IMG/VR virus record: IMGVR_UViG_2695420701_000018
DNA length: 9,910 nt
From: a virus
Taxonomy: Duplodnaviria; Heunggongvirae; Uroviricota; Caudoviricetes
Strand: one strand, 5' to 3'
Every line of letters starts with the position of its first letter. Position 1 is the stretch's first letter. Shown piece after piece: positions 1-9,910 of the stretch. Under the pieces are notes generated by a model, which saw only the letters and a list, made by a program, of their open reading frames with translations, was not told the origin of the DNA and made no database searches. The translations under genes and the position numbers were made by a program.

Positions 1-576
1 GGCGGTAATCCTCCGGCATTTTCCCTGACACCGGACGGAAAACTGACCGCTAAAAATGCAGATATCAGTGGCAGTGTGAATGCGAACGCCGGGACGCTCA
101 ACAATGTCACAATTAATGAGAACTGTCAGATTAAGGGGAAACTGTCAGCCAACCAGATTGAAGGCGATATAGTCAAAACAGTGGGTAAGGCTTTTCCGCG
201 GGACTCCCGGGCACCGGAGCGGTGGCCATCAGGGACCATTACCGTCAGGATTTATGACGATCAGCCTTTTGACAGGCAAATTGTTATTCCGGCGGTGGCA
301 TTCAGCGGCGCTAAACATGAGCGGGAGAATAACGATATTTATTCGTCATGCCGCCTGATAGTACGGAAAAACGGTGCTGAAATTTATAACCGTACCGCGC
401 TGGATAATACGCTGATTTACAGTGGTGTTATTGATATGCCAGCTGGTCGCGGCCACATGACGCTGGAGTTTTCGGTGTCAGCATGGCTGGTGAATAACTG
501 GTATCCCACAGCAAGTATCAGCGATTTGCTGGTTGTGGTGATGAAGAAAGCCACCGCAGGCATCAGTATCAGCTGA
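1..576 (+). CDS. J: Tail tip / host-specificity protein J, C-terminal fragment (5' end lies outside the window)
   Basis: Frame 1 is open from base 1 to the TGA at 574-576. The translation ([28 protein letters not shown] ... DMPAGRG ... GISIS) matches my recollection of the C-terminal receptor-binding end of lambda gpJ, and it sits directly upstream of lom as in lambda. The ORF-track start at 76 is an internal Met. Confidence 0.85.
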
Positions 577-594
577 ATTTTATAACCCATATAC

Positions 595-620
595 GGGCGC
601 CAGAAATGGCGCCTTTTTTA
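595..620 (+). terminator. Rho-independent terminator after J
   Basis: GGCGCC (596-601), loop AGAAAT, GGCGCC (608-613) forms a GC stem, followed by TTTTTT (614-619). Confidence 0.55.
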
Positions 621-643
621 TTGCAGAAAAGCGAGAGGTAATT

Positions 644-1243
644 ATGCGTAAAGTTTGTGCAGCCATTTTGTCCGCAGCCATTTGCCTGGCCGTATCCGGT
701 GCGCCTGCATGGGCGTCTGAACATCAGTCCACACTGAGCGCGGGGTATCTTCATGCCCGTACGAACGCTCCCGGCAGCGATAATCTGAACGGGATTAACG
801 TGAAATACCGTTATGAGTTTACGGACGCGCTGGGGCTGATTACGTCCTTCAGTTATGCCAATGCTGAGGATGAGCAAAAAACGCACTACAGCGATACCCG
901 CTGGCATGAAGATTCCGTGCGTAACCGCTGGTTCAGCGTGATGGCGGGGCCGTCTGTACGCGTGAATGAATGGTTCAGCGCGTATGCGATGGTGGGTGTG
1001 GCTTACAGCCGTGTGTCGACTTTCTCCGGGGATTATCTCCGCGTAACTGACAACAAGGGGAAAACGCACGATGTGCTGACCGGAAGTGATGACGGTCGCC
1101 ACAGCAACACGTCTCTGGCGTGGGGGGCTGGCGTGCAGTTTAACCCGACCGAATCCGTGACCATTGACCTTGCTTATGAAGGTTCCGGTAGTGGTGACTG
1201 GCGAACGGATGCATTTATTGTTGGTATCGGATACCGTATCTGA
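644..1243 (+). CDS. lom: Outer-membrane beta-barrel protein Lom (Ail/Lom/PagC family), lysogenic-conversion type gene
   Basis: 199 aa with an N-terminal signal peptide (MRKVCAAILSAAICLAVSGAPAWA). The C-terminus AYEGSGSGDWRTDAFIVGIGYRI matches the lambda Lom C-terminal beta-strand region as I recall it. GAGG RBS 7 nt upstream. Canonical position between J and stf. Confidence 0.9.
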   Translation: MRKVCAAILSAAICLAVSGAPAWASEHQSTLSAGYLHARTNAPGSDNLNGINVKYRYEFTDALGLITSFSYANAEDEQKTHYSDTRWHEDSVRNRWFSVMAGPSVRVNEWFSAYAMVGVAYSRVSTFSGDYLRVTDNKGKTHDVLTGSDDGRHSNTSLAWGAGVQFNPTESVTIDLAYEGSGSGDWRTDAFIVGIGYRI

Positions 1244-1347
1244 CAACAGACGCCGATTTATCTTCTGTAAATATTGTTATGATACGCAGGTTCATCCACC
1301 TTATGGGGTGAACTGCGTTTGAGGAAACGTAAAGTTACACTGTCCTG

Positions 1348-1380
1348 AAGCCCGTGGCGTCACTGCTGCGGGCTTTTTTT
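1348..1380 (+). terminator. Rho-independent terminator after lom
   Basis: AAGCCCG (1348-1354) pairs with CGGGCTT (1369-1375), followed by a T-run through 1380. Confidence 0.55.
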
Positions 1381-1394
1381 ATTGGTGGAAAAGT

Positions 1395-4151
1395 ATGACA
1401 GTAAAAATTTCTGGCGTGCTTAAAGATGGCACAGGAAAACCAGTACAGAACTGCACCATTGTGCTGAAGGCCAGACGAACCAGCAGCACGATGGTGGTGA
1501 ACACGGTGGCCTCTGAAAATCCGGATGAAGCCGGACGTTACAGCATGGATGTTGAGCATGGTCAGTACAGCGTCACCCTGCTGGTTGAAGGTTTTCCGCC
1601 TTCACATGCCGGGACCATTACCGTCTATGAAGGTTCCAGACCAGGTACGCTGAATGATTTTCTCGGTGCCATGACGGAGGATGATGTCCGACCGGAGGCA
1701 CTGCGCCGCTTTGAGCAGATGGTGGAAGAGGTGTCACGTAACGCCTCCGCGGTTGCACAGAATACGGCAGCCGCGAAAAAATCAGCCAGCGAGGCGGCAA
1801 CTCATGCAACCGATGCTGCAGCCTCAGCACGTGCCGCCAGCACGTCAGCCGGACAGGCCGCGTCGTCGGCTCAGTCAGCGTCTTCCAGCGCAGGAACGGC
1901 ATCGACAAAGGCCCGTGAAGCAGCAAAAAGTGCTGCTGCAGAGTCATCAAAAAGCGCGGCAGCTACCAGCGCCAGTGCCGCGAAAACGTCAGAAACGAAT
2001 GCCGCAGCATCACAAAAATCGGCAGCCACTTCTGCATCCACAGCGACCACGAAGGCGTCAGAAGCTGCCACCTCGGCACGGGGTGCGGCGGCCTCAAAAG
2101 AGGCAGCGAAATCTTCAGAAACGAATGCATCATCAAGTGCCAGTAGTGCAGCTTCCTCGGCAACGGCGGCAGGAAATTCCGCGAAGGCGGCAAAAACGTC
2201 CGAGACGAACGCTAAGTCTTCTGAAACAGCAGCGGGACAGAGCGCCTCAGCTGCGGCAGGTTCAAAAACAGCGGCTGCATTATCTGCCAGTGCCGCGTCA
2301 ACAAGTGCCGGGCAGGCCTCAGCCAGTGCCACCGCCGCCGGAAAATCGGCAGAAAGCGCCGCATCATCCGCTTCAACAGCCACAACGAAGGCTGGCAAAG
2401 CCACTGAGCAAGCCACTGCAGCAGCGAGGTCTGCTTCTGCAGCAAAAACCTCTGAAACAAATGCAAAGACTTCAGCAGACAATGCTGCTTCCTCTAAGGC
2501 AGCAGCCGCATCGTCAGCCAGTTCAGCGGCGTCATCGGCATCATCTGCGTCTGCTTCAAAAGATGAGGCGACCAGACAAGCGTCAGCAGCGAAAGGTAGT
2601 GCCACGACAGCAACAACGAAAGCATCAGAGGCGGCAGGCAGTGCGACGGCTGCATCTCAGAGCAAAGTTGCTGCTGAATCCGCGGCAACGCGCGCCGAGA
2701 CAGCAGCAAAACGGGCAGAGGATATTGCATCCGCCGTGGCGCTTGAGGATGCGAGCACGACGAAAAAGGGGATAGTACAGCTCAGCAGTGCGACCAACAG
2801 CACTTCCGAGTCACTGGCGGCAACGCCAAAAGCGGTTAAGGCGGTAATGGGTGAAACGAACAAGAAAGCGCCCTTAAATAGTCCTGCACTGACCGGAACG
2901 CCAACAACACCAACTGCGCGACAGGGAACGAATAATACCCAAATCGCAAGCACGGCTTTCGTTATGGCTGCGATTGCCGCCCTTGTAGATTCGTCACCTG
3001 ATGCACTGAACACGCTGAACGAGCTGGCTGCGGCGCTGGGCAACGACCCGAATTTTGCGACCACCATGACTAACGCGCTTGCGGGTAAGCAACCGAAAGA
3101 TGCCACCCTGACGGCGCTGGCCGGACTTACTACTGCGGCAGGCAAGTTTCCGTATTTTACGGGGAATGATGTCGCCAGCCTGGCAACCCTGACAAAAGTC
3201 GGGCGGGATATTCTTGCGAAATCGACCGTTGCTGCCGTTATCGAATACCTCGGTTTACAGGAAACGGTAAACAAGGCTGGTAACGCCGTTCAGCGTTCCG
3301 GCGATAAAATGACCGGAGAACTGAAAATTGGCACGGTGAATGCGCTGCGAATTTTCAATGATACCTTCGGTCTAATTTTCCGTCGTTCAGAAGATTTTCT
3401 TCATTTCATTCCGACGGCTGAAGGACAAGGCGAAAACGGTAATATCGGCCCATTAAGGCCATTCGCTATAAATCTGAGAACAGGTGCTATATCTGTCAGC
3501 CACGGGGCCAAAATTAAAGGAGGTCTAGCTATTGGAGCTACTGATAACGCACTGGGTGAAAACTCCATTGTTCTGGGAGATAACGACACCGGATTTAGGC
3601 AAGATGGAGATGGTATTATTAGCTTCTATTCAAATGGTTCGCGCATCGGACATATTGATGAGTTAGGATTACATCTTTATAAAGATATTGAATCTAATGG
3701 CAGCAATTTTAGATTAAAAAGTAATTACCGCCACCACATTACATTCGCCAACGAAGACGGAAGAATTCGTATGTTTTTGTGGAAAGATAACGGTGGTGAT
3801 GGTGTTCATATTAATAACGGTTCAGATGGTGGTGGTGATTTCATTTTTAAAACAGATGGGGGATTTGCGCTGGGAAGTGGTGCGCAAGTTGCGTCTAGTG
3901 GCGATATTTATGGTTCAGTGTGGGAAAACAACTGGTTAAGCACATGGCTGCATAATCATGTCGTTCGGGATATTCGTCTTGGCAGCATTGAATATAAAAA
4001 CGTATGGCGCGACTACGGCTTTGGCGATGCGTCAGGTTATGTTTTAACAGCCGCAATTAACAGCAATGCGGATGATATTGTCGACACTGTTGCCAGAAGG
4101 CCAATTCAGAAATTGATTGGGGGAATATGGTACAACGTGGGGAGTGTTTAA
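1395..4151 (+). CDS. stf: Side tail fibre protein Stf, mosaic: lambda-like N-terminal two thirds, divergent C-terminal receptor-binding domain
   Basis: 918 aa. N-terminus [28 protein letters not shown] ... [14 protein letters not shown] matches lambda Stf as recalled. Long Ala/Ser/Thr-rich repeat region. Conserved region through GRDILAK...EYLG, then a different C-terminal domain containing the GDKMTGEL motif typical of distal tail-fibre domains. The domain after about base 3250 is visibly more AT-rich. Confidence 0.9.
1750..2770 (+). repeat. Low-complexity Ala/Ser/Thr-rich repeat tract inside stf (recurring AKTSETNA units)
   Basis: The unit A-K-[TS]-S-E-T-N-A recurs at least four times (nucleotide near-repeats beginning about 1979, 2107, 2191 and 2443). 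The GCN-rich composition generates the long spurious ORFs on other frames and the opposite strand. Confidence 0.7.
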
Positions 4152-4152
4152 G

Positions 4153-4680
4153 ATGATGCACCTGAAAAATATTAAGGCCGGGAATCCGAAAACACCGGAA
4201 CAATACCAGCTAACTAAAAAAGCGGGCGTGGTATGGCTCTTTTGCGAAGATGGCAAAAACTGGTATGAGGAACAAAAGAATTTTCAGCCAGACACCATAA
4301 AAATTGCTTACGATGAGAACAACATCATCGTTGCTGTCAGTAAAGACGTTTCAACTATTAATCCTGAAGGGCTAAGCATAGTTGAAGTTCCTGATATTAC
4401 GGCAAATCGTCACGCAGACAATAACGGAAAATGGATGTTTCTGGATGGTAAAGTAGTAAAGAGGGAATATACAGAACAGGAACTGCAACAACAGGCCGAA
4501 TCACAAAAGGCCGCATTGCTTTCCGAAGCTGAATCAGTCATCCAGCCGCTGGAACGCGCTGTCAGGCTGAATATGGCAACAGACGAGGAACGCACACGAC
4601 TGGAAGCATGGGAACGCTACAGTGTTCTGGTCAGCCGTGTGGACACTGCAAAACCTGAATGGCCACAAAAGCCCGGGTGA
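4153..4680 (+). CDS. tfa: Tail fibre assembly chaperone Tfa
   Basis: The C-terminus [31 protein letters not shown] resembles the conserved Tfa C-terminal motif (lambda Tfa ...LLEAWKKYRVLLNRVDTS...EWP). ATG at 4153 lies 1 nt after the stf stop (TAA 4149-4151) with GGGGAG 10-15 nt upstream. The ORF-track start at 4117 overlaps stf and is less likely. Confidence 0.8.
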
Positions 4681-4685
4681 AAACC

Positions 4686-4708
4686 AAGGCCCGAACGCCA
4701 GGCCTTTT
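4686..4708 (+). terminator. Weak putative terminator after tfa
   Basis: AAGGCC (4686-4691), 9-nt loop, GGCCTT (4701-4706) then TT. Short stem and short T-run, so tentative. Confidence 0.3.
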
Positions 4709-4816
4709 GCGAATACACCGGCATGCCAGAGTGGAAACAAATTGCGACGCACCAGTCCGTGCACATTTCTGACCGGGCAGCTATTCCAGAAAACAGCAGA
4801 CAAGAGAGGTACAGAT

Positions 4817-5560
4817 ATGTGGTTTCCGGCAAAACTGATGCTTCCGACAGGTAATATCACCCCCATAACATGTTCAGCTATGGCTGTACATCCGTGGGAT
4901 GTTGAAGCGGGGCACATTACGCCAGACGGTGCGTATTTAAGCCCTGTCAACGCAATAAACCACCTTAACAACAAACTCCCGGGCCTGACCGAAAACAGCG
5001 ATATCGCCATCATAATGGTAACAGGCAGCAATAATAACGATTTTATTCGTCAACTGTCAGCACTGGCAGACACACTCCCTTTACCCACTCTGACGCAGAC
5101 GCTAAGACGCGCAAGAACACAGCTCACCCAGGCAATCACCAGAATGCAAATCCCGGCGACACCACAGAACGGACTGCCCGCGCCACAACCACTTATTGCC
5201 AGCACACTACAGAACAGCATCAGTAACCACACCGCGCTTAACGCTATGAAGGCCGAAGGGCTGAACTCTGTCGACTCACTGAAAAACGCGTTATCCGGTT
5301 TTCAGGCACAACGTCAACGGTTGCAGCAACAGATAATCGCTGAACTGGCAGGAGCAGGCGATAAAGTGGCAAAAGCATTTGCGTTCGTGCATACCGGCGA
5401 CGCCGTTTTAGCCCGCCGGGAAATGATGAAAAATATTCCGCACCCCACAGCTTCACTGACGTATGCACACCTGTTCGCAGGCGATCTTTCCGGGATGCTG
5501 AACTGGATAACGAAGGCAGAAAATGAGCCAGAACACGACAACGCCACTGCTGGCCCTTAA
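4817..5560 (+). CDS. Hypothetical protein, first gene of a three-gene accessory module
   Basis: ATG at 4817 with AGAGAGG 7-13 nt upstream; 247 aa to the stop at 5558-5560. The longer ORF-track version begins with GTG at 4622 inside tfa and is less likely. No motif I recognise. Q/L/A-rich central segment (RQRLQQQIIAELAGAG) may be helical. Confidence 0.55.
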   Translation: MWFPAKLMLPTGNITPITCSAMAVHPWDVEAGHITPDGAYLSPVNAINHLNNKLPGLTENSDIAIIMVTGSNNNDFIRQLSALADTLPLPTLTQTLRRARTQLTQAITRMQIPATPQNGLPAPQPLIASTLQNSISNHTALNAMKAEGLNSVDSLKNALSGFQAQRQRLQQQIIAELAGAGDKVAKAFAFVHTGDAVLARREMMKNIPHPTASLTYAHLFAGDLSGMLNWITKAENEPEHDNATAGP

Positions 5561-6089
5561 TGGTCAGATAATCCCGCTAAAACGCTTAAGTGTCAGCGTG
5601 AAGCTGACCATCAAAGACAAAGACGCTTCCGGAAAATCCTCATCAACAGCGACTTCAGAACAGGGTGTAAAAGCCAAGGAGCTGCAGATTTCCGGACTGA
5701 TTCCGTTCACCCAGCCGGAAGCACTCACACGCTTATTTCGTCTGGCTGAAGCCAGAGCCGCTAACGGTGCACAACAGGTTTACCGCATCGCCAACATGGA
5801 TGCTAAAGCGGTCAATATGAAGCAAGGGATTTTTTCCGGTGCCGTGGGCGCAACTCCTGAAACAGGCCTGATGGCATGGAAAGTTGACTTCACTCTGAAA
5901 GAAAAACTCAGCAGTGCCGAAAAGGCGACAGGACGCGGCCCGGCTGGCAATCAGAGTGCTGAACAGCACGCACAGGCCGTCAAATCAGGTGGCAAAGGCG
6001 AAAAAAACGAAGAGCATGGCTGGTTCTGGAAAATGTCAGACAAACTCAATAACTGGATAGGCCCGGCAGGCAATGAAACCAATTCGTGA
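5523..6089 (+). CDS. Hypothetical protein, second gene of the module
   Basis: 188 aa. The start overlaps the upstream gene by 38 nt and the stop overlaps the next start by 17 nt, suggesting translational coupling. Lys/Gly-rich charged C-terminal tail. No recognised domain. Confidence 0.6.
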   Translation: MSQNTTTPLLALNGQIIPLKRLSVSVKLTIKDKDASGKSSSTATSEQGVKAKELQISGLIPFTQPEALTRLFRLAEARAANGAQQVYRIANMDAKAVNMKQGIFSGAVGATPETGLMAWKVDFTLKEKLSSAEKATGRGPAGNQSAEQHAQAVKSGGKGEKNEEHGWFWKMSDKLNNWIGPAGNETNS

Positions 6090-7761
6090 TCTCTGCATTA
6101 ACGGCAGGCGTTATCCTGTCGTGGAAGAAAACATCATGTTGCGTCTCAACGGCGCGGGAACCGGCTTTATCACCATTAACGCCGCCGACAATACTCCCCC
6201 GCTACGCGGCAAACCCGTAGAGCTGTCCATCGGTTACAACGATCAGCCTGTAAAGTGGTTTTCGGGATATGTGGAAAGTGACAGTTGTACAGGCAGAGGG
6301 CTGCACAAGCTGATGGTGCGCGAAGCTGCTGCTATTCTGCAATACCCGCTCAACATCTCCATGCAGCATCCGACGCTGAAACAGGTCGCAGGACACATTG
6401 AAGGCAATACAGGTTTACGCATACAACTCCCGAAGGCAGGCTACACCACCACTCCGGTCCCTCATCTGACCCACAATGGCAACGGTTATCAGCTGATGGC
6501 CATGCTTGGCCGCATATTCAGTATCCCGGATTACGTCTGGTATCCGTCGGTTGACGGCATCATCTACGCCGGAAGCTTTGCTGACTGCCGTTTTGCAAAA
6601 CGCCCTGCCAGATTGCCGGTCGATATCACCAGAGGTGATCACGGAGCAAATGGCTGGACAATACAGACGATTCCCATGATGCGCCCCGGCGTGGTCATGA
6701 ACGATCACCGTATAAATCAGGTACAGCTACAGGGTGACAGCATGATCATTAGCTGGAGTGATGGCCGTCAGTCGCCCGTACAACGCCAGATCGAAACCCT
6801 TTACCCCGAGATAGGCAACAAAACCCACCTTCCACGCATGGGACGCGTGATCTCACCAACTGAAAACACAACCCAGGGGGATTTGCATGATGAATTTCGC
6901 CCACGCTACGCCGTCAATGTGCAGTTGCTCGACGAGAACGGCACCCCCGACAAGGACACACCGGTATATAACGCCGTCCCCGTTCCTGTGCCAATGGCCG
7001 GCAATGAATCCGGGATATTCCAGTACCCGCCCGCAGGAACCATAGTTACACTGGCCCACGTTGACGGCAGGCCGGATAAACCCATCATCACCGGCACTCA
7101 CGCCAGCGGCCAGAGTCTGCCGGGAATAAAGCCCGGCGAACAACTACAACAGCAACGCGCAGAGGTATTCCAGCGTGTGCATACAGATGGCACATGGCAG
7201 CGTGAAACCGATCAGGTTATTCGTGAGAAATCCACCGACCGCATCATCCAGAACACAACGGAAACGCGCACCAGTACCACTCGTAATATTACCGTAAAGG
7301 CCAACAACACCATAACGGTGCTCGGCACTCATAAGCTGATGAGCGGCCACATACAGCACATCGCAGACGGTGACTATGCCGTAGCCGCCACGAAGAAACT
7401 GATACAGCACGCCGACAACGCTGAACTCGACGTTACTCACCAGTGGCAAACCAGCACAGAAAGCGCCACCCACAATGTGGCGAAAACGCTGGAAGAAAAG
7501 ATTGGCCGGATTAAAAAATCCGTCGCTGGCCAGATGCAACAGATCATCGCCCCGCAGGTCTGGTTTGGCAGCAATACCATCAACACACTTAACCTCATGC
7601 TGGATCTTTGCGACACCGTTCAGCAACTGGCGCAGCTCACCGCACAACACACTCATACCAACAACGGGTCGTCACAGCCCACCAACAGCGGCAGCATAGA
7701 CACGGTGGCATCAATGGCAGGCAACCTGAAAGCGAAGTACAGTACCGTGATTAAGCAGTAA
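6073..7761 (+). CDS. Hypothetical protein with spike-like (gpV / gp5 / VgrG-type) OB-fold signature and C-terminal HTH tip motif
   Basis: 562 aa. Residues about 305-346 (GNESGIFQYPPAGTIVTLAHVDGRPDKPIITGTHASG) follow the pattern I recall from the phage baseplate spike OB-fold (P2 gpV PSVGEQVLILAVGGELDTAFVLPGIYSG; VgrG PEVGDEVLVAFEHGDPRRPYVLG). A T/N/I-rich segment follows (NITVKANNTITVLGTHKLMSGHIQHI) and QHTHT lies near the C-terminus (P2 gpV has HTHKH near its tip). Pattern recognition from memory, not a computed alignment. Confidence 0.7.
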   Translation: MKPIRDLCINGRRYPVVEENIMLRLNGAGTGFITINAADNTPPLRGKPVELSIGYNDQPVKWFSGYVESDSCTGRGLHKLMVREAAAILQYPLNISMQHPTLKQVAGHIEGNTGLRIQLPKAGYTTTPVPHLTHNGNGYQLMAMLGRIFSIPDYVWYPSVDGIIYAGSFADCRFAKRPARLPVDITRGDHGANGWTIQTIPMMRPGVVMNDHRINQVQLQGDSMIISWSDGRQSPVQRQIETLYPEIGNKTHLPRMGRVISPTENTTQGDLHDEFRPRYAVNVQLLDENGTPDKDTPVYNAVPVPVPMAGNESGIFQYPPAGTIVTLAHVDGRPDKPIITGTHASGQSLPGIKPGEQLQQQRAEVFQRVHTDGTWQRETDQVIREKSTDRIIQNTTETRTSTTRNITVKANNTITVLGTHKLMSGHIQHIADGDYAVAATKKLIQHADNAELDVTHQWQTSTESATHNVAKTLEEKIGRIKKSVAGQMQQIIAPQVWFGSNTINTLNLMLDLCDTVQQLAQLTAQHTHTNNGSSQPTNSGSIDTVASMAGNLKAKYSTVIKQ

Positions 7762-7893
7762 GTTTACAGATGAGAAGAGGTGCACAGGCAGCCCGGCTTA
7801 CCATTCAAGAATCATGCCACAAAATACAGACAAATAAGCATTTCGTGAAATTATTCATATATCAATAAATTTCATTCATCGAACCAGACGAAA

Positions 7894-7909
7894 GCCCGTC
7901 GCGACGGGC
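7894..7909. other. Perfect 16-bp palindrome GCCCGTCGCGACGGGC in the non-coding region
   Basis: Verified by reverse-complementing. It lies 133 bp downstream of the 6073-7761 stop, with an AT-rich tract containing a TGAAATT/AATTTCA inverted repeat (7846-7874) just upstream. Possible protein-binding site, hairpin or recombination site. Confidence 0.3.
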
Positions 7910-8403
7910 ATTCCCCCAGAAAAACACCCCCCCACCAGACGCGCTGTATCGCATTCTGCAACATGCTTTAAGCAAATAAACGCGCGAGTCACCCTGAATT
8001 CAGCTCGTAACGCCTGAAAGCGTACACGCACGCTACGTGGATATTTCACGGCATGATGAGCCCAACACACGGCACGGGCGCAAGCCCCCCGCGCTTGCAC
8101 TCTTTACGATAAAAATTTTTTGCCAAATAAATTTGCGCAAAACGACACTCCAGATCGCGCCAGCACTGGCGCTTTACAAAAAAGCCATCTGGCACAAAGT
8201 GTCAAAGATTGCCAGGCTTTGCCAGATTAACGTTAAAAAAGGATCTGACAGAAAAATTAACCATATGAAAAACAAAACTATTTTTTGCTTTCGTCATTTT
8301 AAAGGATCTGAATGCCGCCAAAGTGCCACGCACAGGAACCACTTAACGCAATGAAATAAAAGGTAAAAACAAAACATTGGACAAGGATCGTTTTGGCGCA
8401 GCG

Positions 8404-8424
8404 TTACACAGTTTCACTGTGTAA
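8404..8424. promoter_or_regulatory. Inverted repeat TTACACAG-5 nt-CTGTGTAA upstream of the hok-like gene
   Basis: Perfect 8-bp arms separated by TTTCA, about 280 bp upstream of the hok start. Candidate operator or RNA structural element in the toxin leader. Confidence 0.25.
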
Positions 8425-8706
8425 CTATTTTCAGGCGCAAGCAAAAACCGCTCACGAAGGCAGCGACAAAAGCGGCAAAATTTTAACTTTCGCGGAGAAC
8501 CGAACGGGTGACGTGAAACTTTACGTAGCAGAGAAGCGGGAAATCAGTAGAATAATCGCGGGTGCCTTTCGGCTGATGGTCGGAGGGAATACCCGAAGGC
8601 CGGATGTGGAAAGGCCCCGGAAAACATTTCTGTTTAACCGAGGCCCTAACATATCTACCTTAAGCAAGTGATAGGTTAGCGCCTCTCCAACAAAGGAGCA
8701 AGCGCT

Positions 8707-8847
8707 ATGTCGCAAAAATCGCTTACGGCCATCACGTTCTGCGTGACGGCAATCCTCATCATCTGGATGCTGCACGGTTCGCTGTGTGAAATACGGATGA
8801 GCTTCTGGGGAGCGGAGTTTGCGGCGTTCTTACAGTGTAAACAGTAA
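8707..8847 (+). CDS. hok: Hok/Gef-family type I toxin (small membrane peptide), 46 aa
   Basis: Absent from the ORF track, presumably below its length cut-off. Translation MSQKSLTAITFCVTAILIIWMLHGSLCEIRMSFWGAEFAAFLQCKQ has one hydrophobic TM segment followed by SLCEIR ... E-x-AAF, as in Hok from plasmid R1 (...[26 protein letters not shown]) and HokA (...ELAAFLACKLKE). AGGAG RBS 8 nt upstream. A stable hairpin (8857-8878) and a terminator lie downstream. Confidence 0.7.
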   Translation: MSQKSLTAITFCVTAILIIWMLHGSLCEIRMSFWGAEFAAFLQCKQ

Positions 8848-8934
8848 GGAAACCGCGACGGGGGAGCAATCCCCCGTCAATCGGTTGCTAAGGTTGGCTG
8901 AAGTGGCACCCTATCTCACAGACGTGAACAACAA

Positions 8935-8967
8935 ACCCGCAGCGTAAGAACTGCGGGTTTTCTTTTT
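8935..8967 (+). terminator. Rho-independent terminator downstream of the hok-like gene (possibly bidirectional)
   Basis: ACCCGCAG (8935-8942), loop CGTAAGAA, CTGCGGGT (8951-8958), then TTTCTTTTT. On the minus strand the stem is followed by a weaker U-rich tract, so it may also terminate the 9036-9317 gene. Confidence 0.7.
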
Positions 8968-9035
8968 GGAACTATCACTAGCTAGTGTACCGTTAACGGC
9001 ACATAATGCTCGCACAACAAACCTGTTAAAAGAGA

Positions 9036-9317
9036 TTACTCAGCATTCTCCTGCTTCCATTGCCGGATCATTTCATCGGTAACATCACCCTCATAACATA
9101 CCACGTCATACCCTCCATTACGGCTATATGCACTGCGTCCACCACATCTACTACCATTCCTTGCATGATTATAAGGACACGCACAATTGCCTGGATAAGA
9201 TTCAATGGATTCTTTAATTATTTCTTTTTTGATCTGAGCATCAGACTTTCCTGTTGCTGCATATCCACTAAAAGATACTAAACAAAGGCAGATTGCCATT
9301 AATAAACCACATCGCAT
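9036..9317 (-). CDS. Small secreted Cys-containing protein (signal peptide plus about 70 aa mature domain), function unknown
   Basis: Probable start at the Met of MRCGLLMAICLCLVSFSGYAATG (complement of CAT at 9315-9317), a typical Sec signal peptide. The ORF-track N-terminal extension to 9431 has no signal-like character. Mature part contains CACPY...RCGGRSAYSRNGGYDVVCYEG with 4 Cys. AT-rich relative to neighbours. Confidence 0.6.
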   Translation of the reverse strand: MRCGLLMAICLCLVSFSGYAATGKSDAQIKKEIIKESIESYPGNCACPYNHARNGSRCGGRSAYSRNGGYDVVCYEGDVTDEMIRQWKQENAE

Positions 9318-9573
9318 ACCGATACACTCTATTACTAACCAATCATAGCCCACATCATAAAATCGAGATGAGGAGTACAATACCTTTAACAAGAAGGTGT
9401 CATAACGATAATATGTCGTGCAATTCATCAAAAAAAAGATCTATATCAAAGAGATAGAACTCTTATCAGTGCTTCAGACATCGGCATTCGAGGCAGCAGA
9501 AAAACAGTAAATCTGACGAATTTGCCTTTTCCCAAGATGTTGTCAGATTAAAAAAGATAGATTAGCGCAGGTA

Positions 9574-9717
9574 CCTGTTGGTGGATTGCAGGAGGAAAAA
9601 TGAAGTCGAGTGGAAAAATCCCAAAAAAATTTTTGTTTAACAGAGGTCCTGGTTCACTATGCGAAATACGGAGGAGCTGCAGAAGAATTCTGCTTCATCC
9701 TTAGAGTTTAAACAGCA
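9574..9717 (+). pseudogene. Decayed second copy of the hok-like locus (leader plus C-terminal coding remnant, N-terminal region deleted)
   Basis: 9574-9650 is alignable to 8576-8648 (both end in TGTTTAAC-GAGG-CCT) and 9651-9717 to 8776-8844 (GGTTC-CT-TG-GAAATACGGA...AGT-TAAACAG). The roughly 127 bp that in copy 1 carries the hok RBS, start codon and TM segment (8649-8775) is missing. The remnant frame reads LCEIRRSCRRILLHP-stop. Confidence 0.45.
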
Positions 9718-9793
9718 CGTGCACTACCATTGTTTCTGCATATCGCCACACCATCGCCACTCTACCGCCATTGCACAAAATACAAATACGAAA

Positions 9794-9813
9794 AAACCAC
9801 CCGAAGGTGGTTT
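9794..9813 (-). terminator. Rho-independent terminator downstream of the minus-strand tRNA
   Basis: AAACCACC (9794-9801), loop CGAA, GGTGGTTT (9806-9813). On the minus strand the stem is followed by UUUUUU (complement of the A-run 9791-9796), about 45 nt past the tRNA 3' end. Confidence 0.65.
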
Positions 9814-9856
9814 CACGACACTGCTTATTACTTTGATTTTATTCTTATCTTTCCCA

Positions 9857-9910
9857 TGGTACCCGGAGCGGGACTTGAACCCGCACAGCGCGAACGCCGA
9901 GGGATTTTAA
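9857..9910 (-). tRNA. leuZ: tRNA-Leu (anticodon UAA), 3' portion only; 5' part lies beyond the window
   Basis: Reverse complement of 9857-9910 reads TTAAAATCCCTCGGCGTTCGCGCTGTGCGGGTTCAAGTCCCGCTCCGGGTACCA: anticodon loop with UAA, long class II variable arm, T-arm GGTTCAAGTCC, acceptor stem and encoded CCA. Matches the E. coli leuZ sequence as I recall it. Confidence 0.85.

Follow-up and report, generated by a model that had tools for sequence, protein, structure and literature searches.

Behind a lambda-type tail fibre in a 9,910-nucleotide stretch of caudoviricete DNA (IMG/VR record IMGVR_UViG_2695420701_000018; the whole stretch is referred to here as the window) lie three overlapping genes on the + strand, one of which encodes a spike-like protein. 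A gpV-type spike serves no purpose in a lambda-type tail, a point on which we agree with the sequence-only reading of this DNA, and the locus therefore raises the question of what these genes are and how they came to lie there. The open reading frames were reproduced at 4817-5560 (gene 1, 247 residues), 5523-6089 (gene 2, 188 residues) and 6073-7761 (gene 3, 562 residues), with overlaps of 38 nt between genes 1 and 2 and 17 nt between genes 2 and 3. All three are real and intact and their boundaries are correct. The start of gene 1 at 4817 is preceded, 8 nt upstream, by the Shine-Dalgarno sequence AGAGAGG, and its first two residues (Met1 and Trp2) are kept in all orthologues, including that of Haemophilus phage HP1; the RefSeq start at 4880 is 63 nt too late. 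The initial Met of gene 2 and the initial MKPI of gene 3 are likewise conserved among orthologues.

All three proteins have a homologue in HP1 (orf33, orf34 and orf35, respectively; UniProt P51737-P51739), with 26% identity and a BLASTP E-value of 2e-17 for gene 1, 45% identity and 2e-36 for gene 2, and 2e-98 for gene 3. Judged by this homology and by gene order, the trio is the orthologue of the orf33-orf34-orf35 block with which the tail operon closes in HP1-type P2-like myoviruses (Peduoviridae), and as such is a standard part of a well-sampled phage group. The order fibre-tfa-orf33-orf34-orf35 ends the late operon in HP1, ESSI2_ev239, Kappa, phiO18P and SI7, where the equivalents of the trio are HP1 orf33-orf35, ESSI2_ev239 gp03-01, Vibrio phage Kappa/K139 kp43-45, phiO18P 44-46 and SI7 gp22-24. 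The same order is present at 77 of 78 IMG/VR loci and in six complete Escherichia coli genomes and seven draft contigs; in these E. coli copies the upstream genes encode sheath, tube, tape measure, DUF2590, Baseplate_J and gpI. Among 80 viral loci, N-gapped scaffolds aside, none carries the trio outside a myovirus tail operon.

The window shares with HP1 and its relatives the order, strand and overlapping starts of the genes, their place closing the late operon, immediately behind fibre and tfa, the fusion of gpD-like and gpV-like parts in one protein and a C-terminal His-x-His motif. It differs from HP1 in sequence (only 26-45% identity), in the spacer between tfa and gene 1 (136 nt compared with 32 nt) and in its upstream genes, which are lambdoid rather than of the HP1 baseplate type. 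These results replace the earlier description of the trio as an uncharacterised module, without a standard lambda gene, in the accessory-cargo position after stf-tfa: the co-occurrence of the genes places them at the HP1-type tail-operon end, gene 2 has its own Pfam family, both PHROGs and phage records name gene 3 a baseplate protein, and genes 2 and 3 are ordinary parts of a known tail module. Gene 1, for which no function had been offered, is assigned to the tail module on the strength of synteny and of an orthologue detected in virions by mass spectrometry.

Gene 3 encodes a central hub fused to a gpV/gp5-like spike, and published HHpred work describes HP1 orf35 as a fusion of gpD and gpV. 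The protein matches phrog_2258 ('baseplate protein') with an E-value of 8.6e-196. Residues from about 1 to 230 form a hub segment of the gpD/Mu gp44/gp27 fold, for which the best fold matches are phage hubs. This is followed by a putative OB-fold region (residues about 250-345), a Thr/Asn/Ile-rich segment presumed to form a beta-helix (residues about 380-470) and a His-x-His tip motif at residues 526-528. The two histidines (His526 and His528) are invariant in 19 gene 3 orthologues and in HP1, Kappa, phiO18P, SI7 and ESSI2_ev239. The motif is present in six phage genera, as well as in P2-like gpV, in which it is a metal site, and Mu-like gp45. The 562-residue protein is thus of the spike type, as had been proposed. 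Of the features cited for that proposal, the tip motif stands, and the OB-fold region gives weak matches below the curated cut-offs (PF04717, E-value 2e-4; TIGR01646, E-value 2.3e-8). Comparison of the orf35 profile with P2-like gpV, Mu-like gp44 and Mu-like gp45 using hhalign gave no significant alignment; the non-significant alignments place gpV (at a conserved motif) and gp45 on the OB-fold region and gp44 on the hub. The monomer model has a pLDDT below 50 over residues 346-503. Two differences from the classical systems are apparent. Hub and spike are separate proteins in P2 (gpD and gpV) and Mu (gp44 and gp45) but a single polypeptide here, and the His-x-His motif of gene 3 has predicted helices on either side and is followed by about 35 residues, whereas the P2 gpV tip is short.

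By analogy with these systems, three copies of the 562-residue protein would form the central hub, matching a tail tube of six-fold symmetry to a spike of three-fold symmetry, and the same polypeptide would provide a membrane-piercing spike with a putative metal-binding His-x-His tip. The hub-spike complex would plug the tube and seed the assembly of gpW/gpJ/gpI-type wedges, and sheath contraction would push it through the outer membrane. Genes 1 and 2 may encode small partners of this complex, made by coupled translation. Mass spectrometry of ACA1 virions found homologues of orf33, gpD and gpV (PMC10612066).

The domain order of gene 3 (gp27-like hub, gp5-like OB-fold, spike) is also that of the VgrG proteins of type VI secretion systems (T6SS), and RefSeq names the protein 'type VI secretion system Vgr family protein'. 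An orphan T6SS VgrG island would account for this name, for the weak matches to TIGR01646 and TIGR03361 and for weak PDB matches to VgrG over the OB-fold region. Both NCBIfam cut-offs are missed widely (33.5 versus 121.8 bits and 24.8 versus 186.35 bits), fold searches point first to phage hubs, the orthologues that match over the full length are baseplate proteins of phages, and the neighbouring genes are phage tail genes with no T6SS genes among them. The failed cut-offs and the phage context rule out VgrG as the identity of gene 3, and we consider the chance of such an island negligible.

Gene 1 matches phrog_1677 with an E-value of 9.9e-42. Its AF2 model (pLDDT 71.5) found no match in fold searches of the PDB and BFVD, and single-sequence and profile comparisons with PDB chains produced chance-level matches only. 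Its orthologue gp46 was detected in ACA1 virions (PMC10612066 Table S2). Gene 1 is a conserved companion of the hub genes, and synteny suggests a baseplate role. Possibly, the orf33 family contributes to the baseplate a fold that no solved structure has yet shown.

Gene 2 matches PF25759 (HP1_ORF34; E-value 6.7e-49, 166 bits against a cut-off of 27) and phrog_1398 (E-value 3.5e-55), which identifies it as a member of the HP1 ORF34 family of baseplate complex proteins; comparisons with PDB chains, by single sequence and by profile, again gave chance-level matches only. Its orthologue is absent from the proteins detected in ACA1 virions (PMC10612066 Table S2), and synteny by itself suggests a role as a baseplate partner. 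HP1 orf34 has been linked to P2 gpU in published work that marks the link as 'uncertain', and alignment of the orf34 profile with P2-like gpU using hhalign was negative, so that the assignment of gene 2 as a P2 gpU analogue is possible but uncertain. Vibrio phage XM1 gp11 (250 residues, a tube-like ring) and gp12 (188 residues, an Ig-like inner baseplate protein; PMC10457771) are close in size to genes 1 and 2 and occupy a comparable place in a simple baseplate. They were rejected as equivalents, the likeness being a coincidence of size: neither gene has a sequence match to any PDB chain, and gene 1 shows no fold match.

The position of the trio is explained by the gene that precedes it. The trio does follow the tail fibre assembly gene tfa (4153-4680, + strand; PF02413, E-value 2.5e-36), as had been stated, and mismatch maps of this tfa against two parents indicate that it is a hybrid, its 5' two-thirds derived from a Shigella sonnei lambdoid prophage, its 3' end from an HP1-like one. 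From 4519 to 9910 the window has no mismatch with the right end of an HP1-like prophage copy (L005), the last mismatch being at 4518, and from 4107 to 4518 the identity to this prophage is about 75%. Conversely, the window is identical from 2745 to 4643 to the lambdoid copy in S. sonnei 53G (L021), with the next mismatch at 4644, and positions 1-4643 show four mismatches against eight S. sonnei copies. The switch accordingly falls within 4519-4643, a tract of 125 nt that is identical in both parental tfa genes and is the longest exact run between the two parents. It is the joining of two prophages within this shared tract that puts the trio behind a lambda-type tail fibre; near-identical copies of it, among them copies with 100% identity from 4519 onward, sit in a complete myovirus tail module, whereas in the window the upstream genes are the lambdoid J-lom-stf. 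On these alignments the trio is not cargo of a lambdoid prophage, and the DNA from 4519 onward is not lambdoid, contrary to the cargo position assigned to it.

The flanking regions agree with this division. The C-terminal part of J (76-576), lom (644-1243) and stf (1395-4151, 918 residues), all on the + strand and assigned by Pfam, belong to the S. sonnei lambdoid prophage, in which J-lom-stf-tfa adjoins trpA in complete genomes. The exact 918-residue stf occurs in S. sonnei 53G and in 271 other blocks, and downstream of those copies are tfa and then an inverted tfa'/fibre cassette, not the trio. A search of independent genomes for lambdoid prophages with the trio downstream of stf-tfa found none. 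Beyond gene 3, the right arm of the HP1-like prophage (7762-8968, + strand) consists of a non-coding stretch and a hok/sok-type toxin-antitoxin locus, comprising a sok-like element at 8560-8717 (Rfam sok, 44.8 bits, E-value 2.9e-8, below the gathering score) and hok at 8707-8847 (RefSeq 'Hok/Gef family protein'). The element ends at about 8968, where the alignment to an HP1-like copy at another insertion site (L004) stops. The HP1-like prophage is integrated beside tRNA-Leu (leuZ); a tRNA scan and an Rfam scan at the gathering score gave no matches in the window, and the tRNA-Leu lies just beyond or across the window end.

The join itself could arise from the assembly or from recombination. 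The hybrid tfa protein occurs in one contig only in an index of 153 billion genes, the hybrid junction is absent from 5,426 complete E. coli genomes, and the only other IMG/VR record with it is a scaffold, interrupted by Ns, from a sister isolate. The scaffold of the source record itself contains an N run, and nothing anchors its left end, as the contig begins within J. Sister assemblies attach the same lambdoid fragment variously to HP1-like, P2-like and other lambdoid pieces; segments are duplicated there, and the switches coincide exactly with N gaps. In sister contigs free of gaps and in complete S. sonnei genomes, the lambdoid DNA continues normally. Because the hybrid tfa is confined to a single scaffold and the other scaffolds of the project repeatedly mis-join tail-fibre repeats, an assembly artefact is the probable source of the junction, the alternative being a private recombination event. 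An artefactual join would stem from the scaffolding and gap-closing steps of a short-read draft assembly, and the isolate would then carry an intact HP1-like prophage with the trio in its usual place. Against an artefact, the junction in the window contains no N, and the two parts meet seamlessly with the reading frame preserved. The lambdoid fragment also lies beside the HP1-like right end in two assemblies (that of the window and L026/L031), which could reflect a real arrangement rather than a repeated pipeline error. Overall, we favour the reading that the trio consists of HP1-type hub and spike genes and that their join to lambdoid DNA within the shared 125 nt is most likely an assembly error, with a probability of roughly two in three.

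The same gene identities combined with a real junction, produced by homologous recombination in the 125-nt tract of the two tfa genes, would look no different, since a genuine RecA- or Red-type crossover in this identity would give an identical appearance. The event could have brought a lambdoid phage genome into a resident HP1-like prophage, or could have been an inversion between prophages. The seamless in-frame join is consistent with this, as is the exact coincidence of the switch with the longest stretch of identity between the parents, which homologous recombination predicts. Fibre/tfa cassettes are 96-98% identical among P2-like, Mu-like, P1-like and lambdoid elements, pointing to frequent real exchange, and the intactness of all three proteins would fit a very recent event. 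Several observations argue in the other direction: the hybrid tfa occurs once in the whole index, compared with 272 blocks for the parental stf and 38 for orf35, private mutations are absent on either side of the switch, and the scaffolds of the project arrange the same fragment in many mutually incompatible ways. In addition, trpA and leuZ lie about 0.7 Mb from each other in E. coli K-12, and the two tfa genes share one orientation with respect to their flanking genes, so that a simple chromosomal crossover would delete essential genes. Recombination is considered unlikely. Were it to have occurred, it would leave an intact orphaned hub-spike trio with no sheath, tube or wedges.

A real junction would also permit a further scenario in which read-through from the lambdoid late operon produces a free spike complex with a new role. 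The putative terminator described after tfa is not borne out, as no + strand terminator was found in a scan of 4681-4816. Folding of the spacer between tfa and gene 1 is no better than that of shuffled sequences (z +0.44), and the spacer holds merely a hairpin of 5-6 bp followed by UUUU; with no convincing terminator, read-through is possible. Under this scenario, which we rate as very unlikely, the trio, transcribed with the lambdoid late genes or independently of them, would have been co-opted as a free VgrG-like spike complex for superinfection exclusion, defence or tailocin-like activity, a proposal that is itself scarcely credible but would be compatible with the possible read-through, the intact genes and the lack of a known fold for gene 1. 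A scan of the three proteins against PADLOC-DB 2.0 at E-values up to 0.1 returned no families, the proteins are 100% identical to those of complete HP1-like prophages, the divergence signature expected after a change of role is absent, and the trio keeps to myovirus tail operons at the viral loci described above. No defence, T6SS or effector signal was found for the trio. Of the three options offered previously, a relic of a second tail module comes nearest to the truth; a defence or exclusion system finds no support, given the PADLOC result and the identity of the trio as the HP1-type tail-operon end block. If co-option were nevertheless true, a free spike complex might block related myoviruses or decorate another tail.

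Returning to the favoured reading of HP1-type genes brought behind lambdoid DNA by an assembly error, the locus has little biological import in itself, and the odd appearance of a spike behind a siphovirus fibre results from two prophages joined via a shared tfa segment. Two annotations could mislead, namely the RefSeq T6SS VgrG name of gene 3 and the late RefSeq start of gene 1. For the phage group, the HP1-type orf33 and orf34 families are left as families with no solved or recognisable structure, a small gap that baseplate cryo-EM could fill. More generally, tail-fibre/tfa cassettes are common to unrelated prophages and are hot spots of chimeric short-read scaffolds, and any 'unexpected cargo' after tfa should be compared with both parents before it is interpreted.

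The three overlapping genes that follow the tail fibre assembly gene tfa, gene 1 (4817–5560), gene 2 (5523–6089) and gene 3 (6073–7761), are present as the sequence-only reading described them, on the same strand and with overlaps of 38 nt (genes 1 and 2) and 17 nt (genes 2 and 3). Each has a family assignment and a counterpart in phage HP1. Gene 1 matches phrog_1677 (E = 9.9e-42) and HP1 orf33 (26% identity, E = 2e-17), gene 2 matches Pfam PF25759, 'HP1 ORF34 baseplate complex protein' (E = 6.7e-49), and HP1 orf34 (45% identity), and gene 3 matches phrog_2258, 'baseplate protein', over its full length (E = 8.6e-196) and HP1 orf35 (34% identity, E = 2e-98). These assignments agree with those made by HHpred for the HP1 subgroup (PMC10612066, Tables S1 and S2), in which orf35 fuses homologues of P2 gpD and gpV and orf34 is a possible gpU homologue marked 'uncertain'. 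All three are ordinary components of a known tail module, the outcome that had been set against their being uncharacterised.

The order fibre, tfa, orf33, orf34, orf35 is shared by HP1, ESSI2_ev239, Kappa/K139, phiO18P and SI7, which represent five Peduoviridae genera; in these phages the starts of orf33–35 overlap or abut and the genes are the last of the late operon. Homologues of gene 3 occur in 75 phage records. Of 80 IMG/VR loci that encode a gene 3 relative, 78 extend far enough upstream to be assessed, and 77 of these have the same contiguous trio; a Baseplate_J gene lies within 8 kb in 65. Only six of 5,426 complete Escherichia coli genomes carry the trio, in every case as the end of an HP1-like prophage beside tRNA-Leu/Cys/Gly and pgsA–uvrC that also encodes a terminase, a head completion protein, a DUF2586 sheath, tube, lysis genes, a tape measure, DUF2590, Baseplate_J, gpI, a fibre and tfa. 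The arrangement is the same in seven draft contigs. The element seems to end near window position 8968, the last base to which a copy inserted beside ihfA–pheT (L004) aligns; a strong terminator-like hairpin lies just before this end (8933–8960). In three assemblies (L004, L008 and L010) an IS110-family element is inserted between positions 7923 and 7928, a short way 3' of gene 3. The right arm also carries a hok/sok-type type I toxin–antitoxin locus (8560–8847), comprising a 46-residue hok ORF (8707–8847) and a sok-like RNA (RF01794, 8560–8717; 44.8 bits, E = 2.9e-8, below the gathering score of 59); about 1,500 complete E. coli genomes contain relatives of the hok region that are 81–96% identical. 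A Cys-rich small ORF on the minus strand (9036–9431; phrog_27544, E = 1.5e-57) lies outside the prophage and adjoins tRNA-Leu; it spans 131 residues from a TTG codon and is annotated as 93 residues.

The AlphaFold2 model of the gene 3 product, built on 19 orthologues, has high confidence over residues 1–230, moderate confidence over about 250–345 and in the C-terminal helices, and low confidence over 346–503. Evidence for the OB-fold proposed from the sequence is convergent but weaker: PF04717 (E = 2e-4) and TIGR01646 (E = 2.3e-8) match residues 254–355, both below their curated cut-offs, and VgrG structures in the PDB match residues 305–360. The proposed His-x-His motif is borne out, with His526 and His528 invariant across the 19 orthologues; the motif recurs at this position in six genera, and P2-like gpV and Mu-like gp45 have it too. 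Gene 3 thus encodes a VgrG-like hub–spike fusion of a phage baseplate, comparable to the fused proteins Afp8 and VgrG1, with a putative trimeric β-helix in the spike and putative metal binding, and the earlier suspicion of a spike-type protein was correct. It is not a type VI secretion system (T6SS) VgrG, because it falls far below both NCBIfam cut-offs; a T6SS island was also rejected for the trio. The RefSeq product name is T6SS Vgr family protein.

In phage ACA1 the orf33 homologue gp46 was found in purified virions along with the gpD and gpV homologues (PMC10612066). From these virion data, the strict synteny and the coupled translation, we infer that genes 1 and 2 encode inner-baseplate partners of the hub. 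The orf33 family (phrog_1677) is conserved across HP1-type phages, and neither the PDB nor BFVD contains a detectable relative by fold or by sequence; the Vibrio and Aeromonas members are longer at the N-terminus, by about 55 residues. XM1 gp11 and gp12 were rejected as counterparts of genes 1 and 2, their sizes matching without any similarity. The start codons of all three genes hold up: gene 1 begins at 4817 with Met-Trp, which follows a good Shine–Dalgarno sequence (AGAGAGG) and is kept in every orthologue, including HP1 orf33, and both Met1 of gene 2 and the MKPI start of gene 3 are conserved. The RefSeq start of gene 1 at 4880, giving 226 residues, is probably wrong. The terminator postulated after tfa is unsupported, as none was called on the plus strand within 4681–4816 and the spacer shows no excess of structure over shuffled sequence (z = +0.44).

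The window corresponds to contig CXDJ01000092.1 (assembly GCA_001260415.1) and joins two prophages. Its left part holds the C-terminus of a lambdoid J (76–576), lom (644–1243), stf (1395–4151) and tfa (4153–4680). Positions 1–4643 show four mismatches to the lambdoid prophage of Shigella sonnei 53G (HE616528.1, which we take to be its chromosome and which is cited in S. sonnei studies) and seven other genomes, and the window diverges from that prophage from 4644 on. Against the HP1-like copy L005, positions 4519–9910 are 100% identical, with no mismatch in 5.4 kb, and a mismatch map gives about 75% identity for 4107–4518. The parents have a single 125-nt stretch of identity in common, 4519–4643, inside tfa. 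In complete S. sonnei genomes J–lom–stf–tfa adjoins trpA, followed by an inverted tfa'/fibre cassette rather than by the trio. Within stf, an Ala/Ser/Thr-rich low-complexity stretch (1750–2750; GC about 0.58, AT skew up to +0.4) gives rise to several long ORFs, in the alternative frames and on the other strand, that are spurious.

A private homologous recombination within the shared tfa tract is a less likely origin of the junction than an assembly artefact. Sequence alone cannot tell the two apart: a genuine crossover, placed in the longest stretch of identity, would give the same result, and fibre/tfa cassettes do move between unrelated phages. The fibre C-terminus and tfa (3400–4694), a typical horizontally exchanged receptor-binding cassette, are 96–98% identical to P2-like prophages, a Mu-like prophage with an invertible segment and plasmid records. 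The hybrid tfa protein occurs in one contig of the whole exact-match index, against 272 blocks for the parental stf and 38 for orf35. The source record, a scaffold (N run at 15080–15151 of L007), begins within J, so that the lambdoid piece is tied to the chromosome only via the 125-nt repeat. In sister assemblies of the project this lambdoid fragment lies beside HP1-like, P2-like or other lambdoid pieces; 1–11 N gaps fall precisely at the switches, and segments are duplicated or re-ordered (L026, L031 and L109–L112); the gap-free sister contigs L113 and L114 show the normal lambdoid continuation. Given the singleton hybrid, the scaffolded record and these mis-joins, a scaffolding and gap-closure artefact is therefore favoured (probability about 0.7). 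The exact lom variant of the window is confined to assemblies of the same project. Three clustered mismatches to the eight S. sonnei copies (lom, 682–689) may reflect two lom copies mixed during assembly.

Among the roles offered by the sequence-only reading, a defence system finds no PADLOC match for the trio, and the relic of a second tail module comes closest. The trio itself is intact, an ordinary HP1-type block identical to the copies in complete prophages. Whether the junction is real or an artefact, the three genes are neither lambdoid cargo nor a defence system but the ordinary hub–spike end of an HP1-type tail operon.
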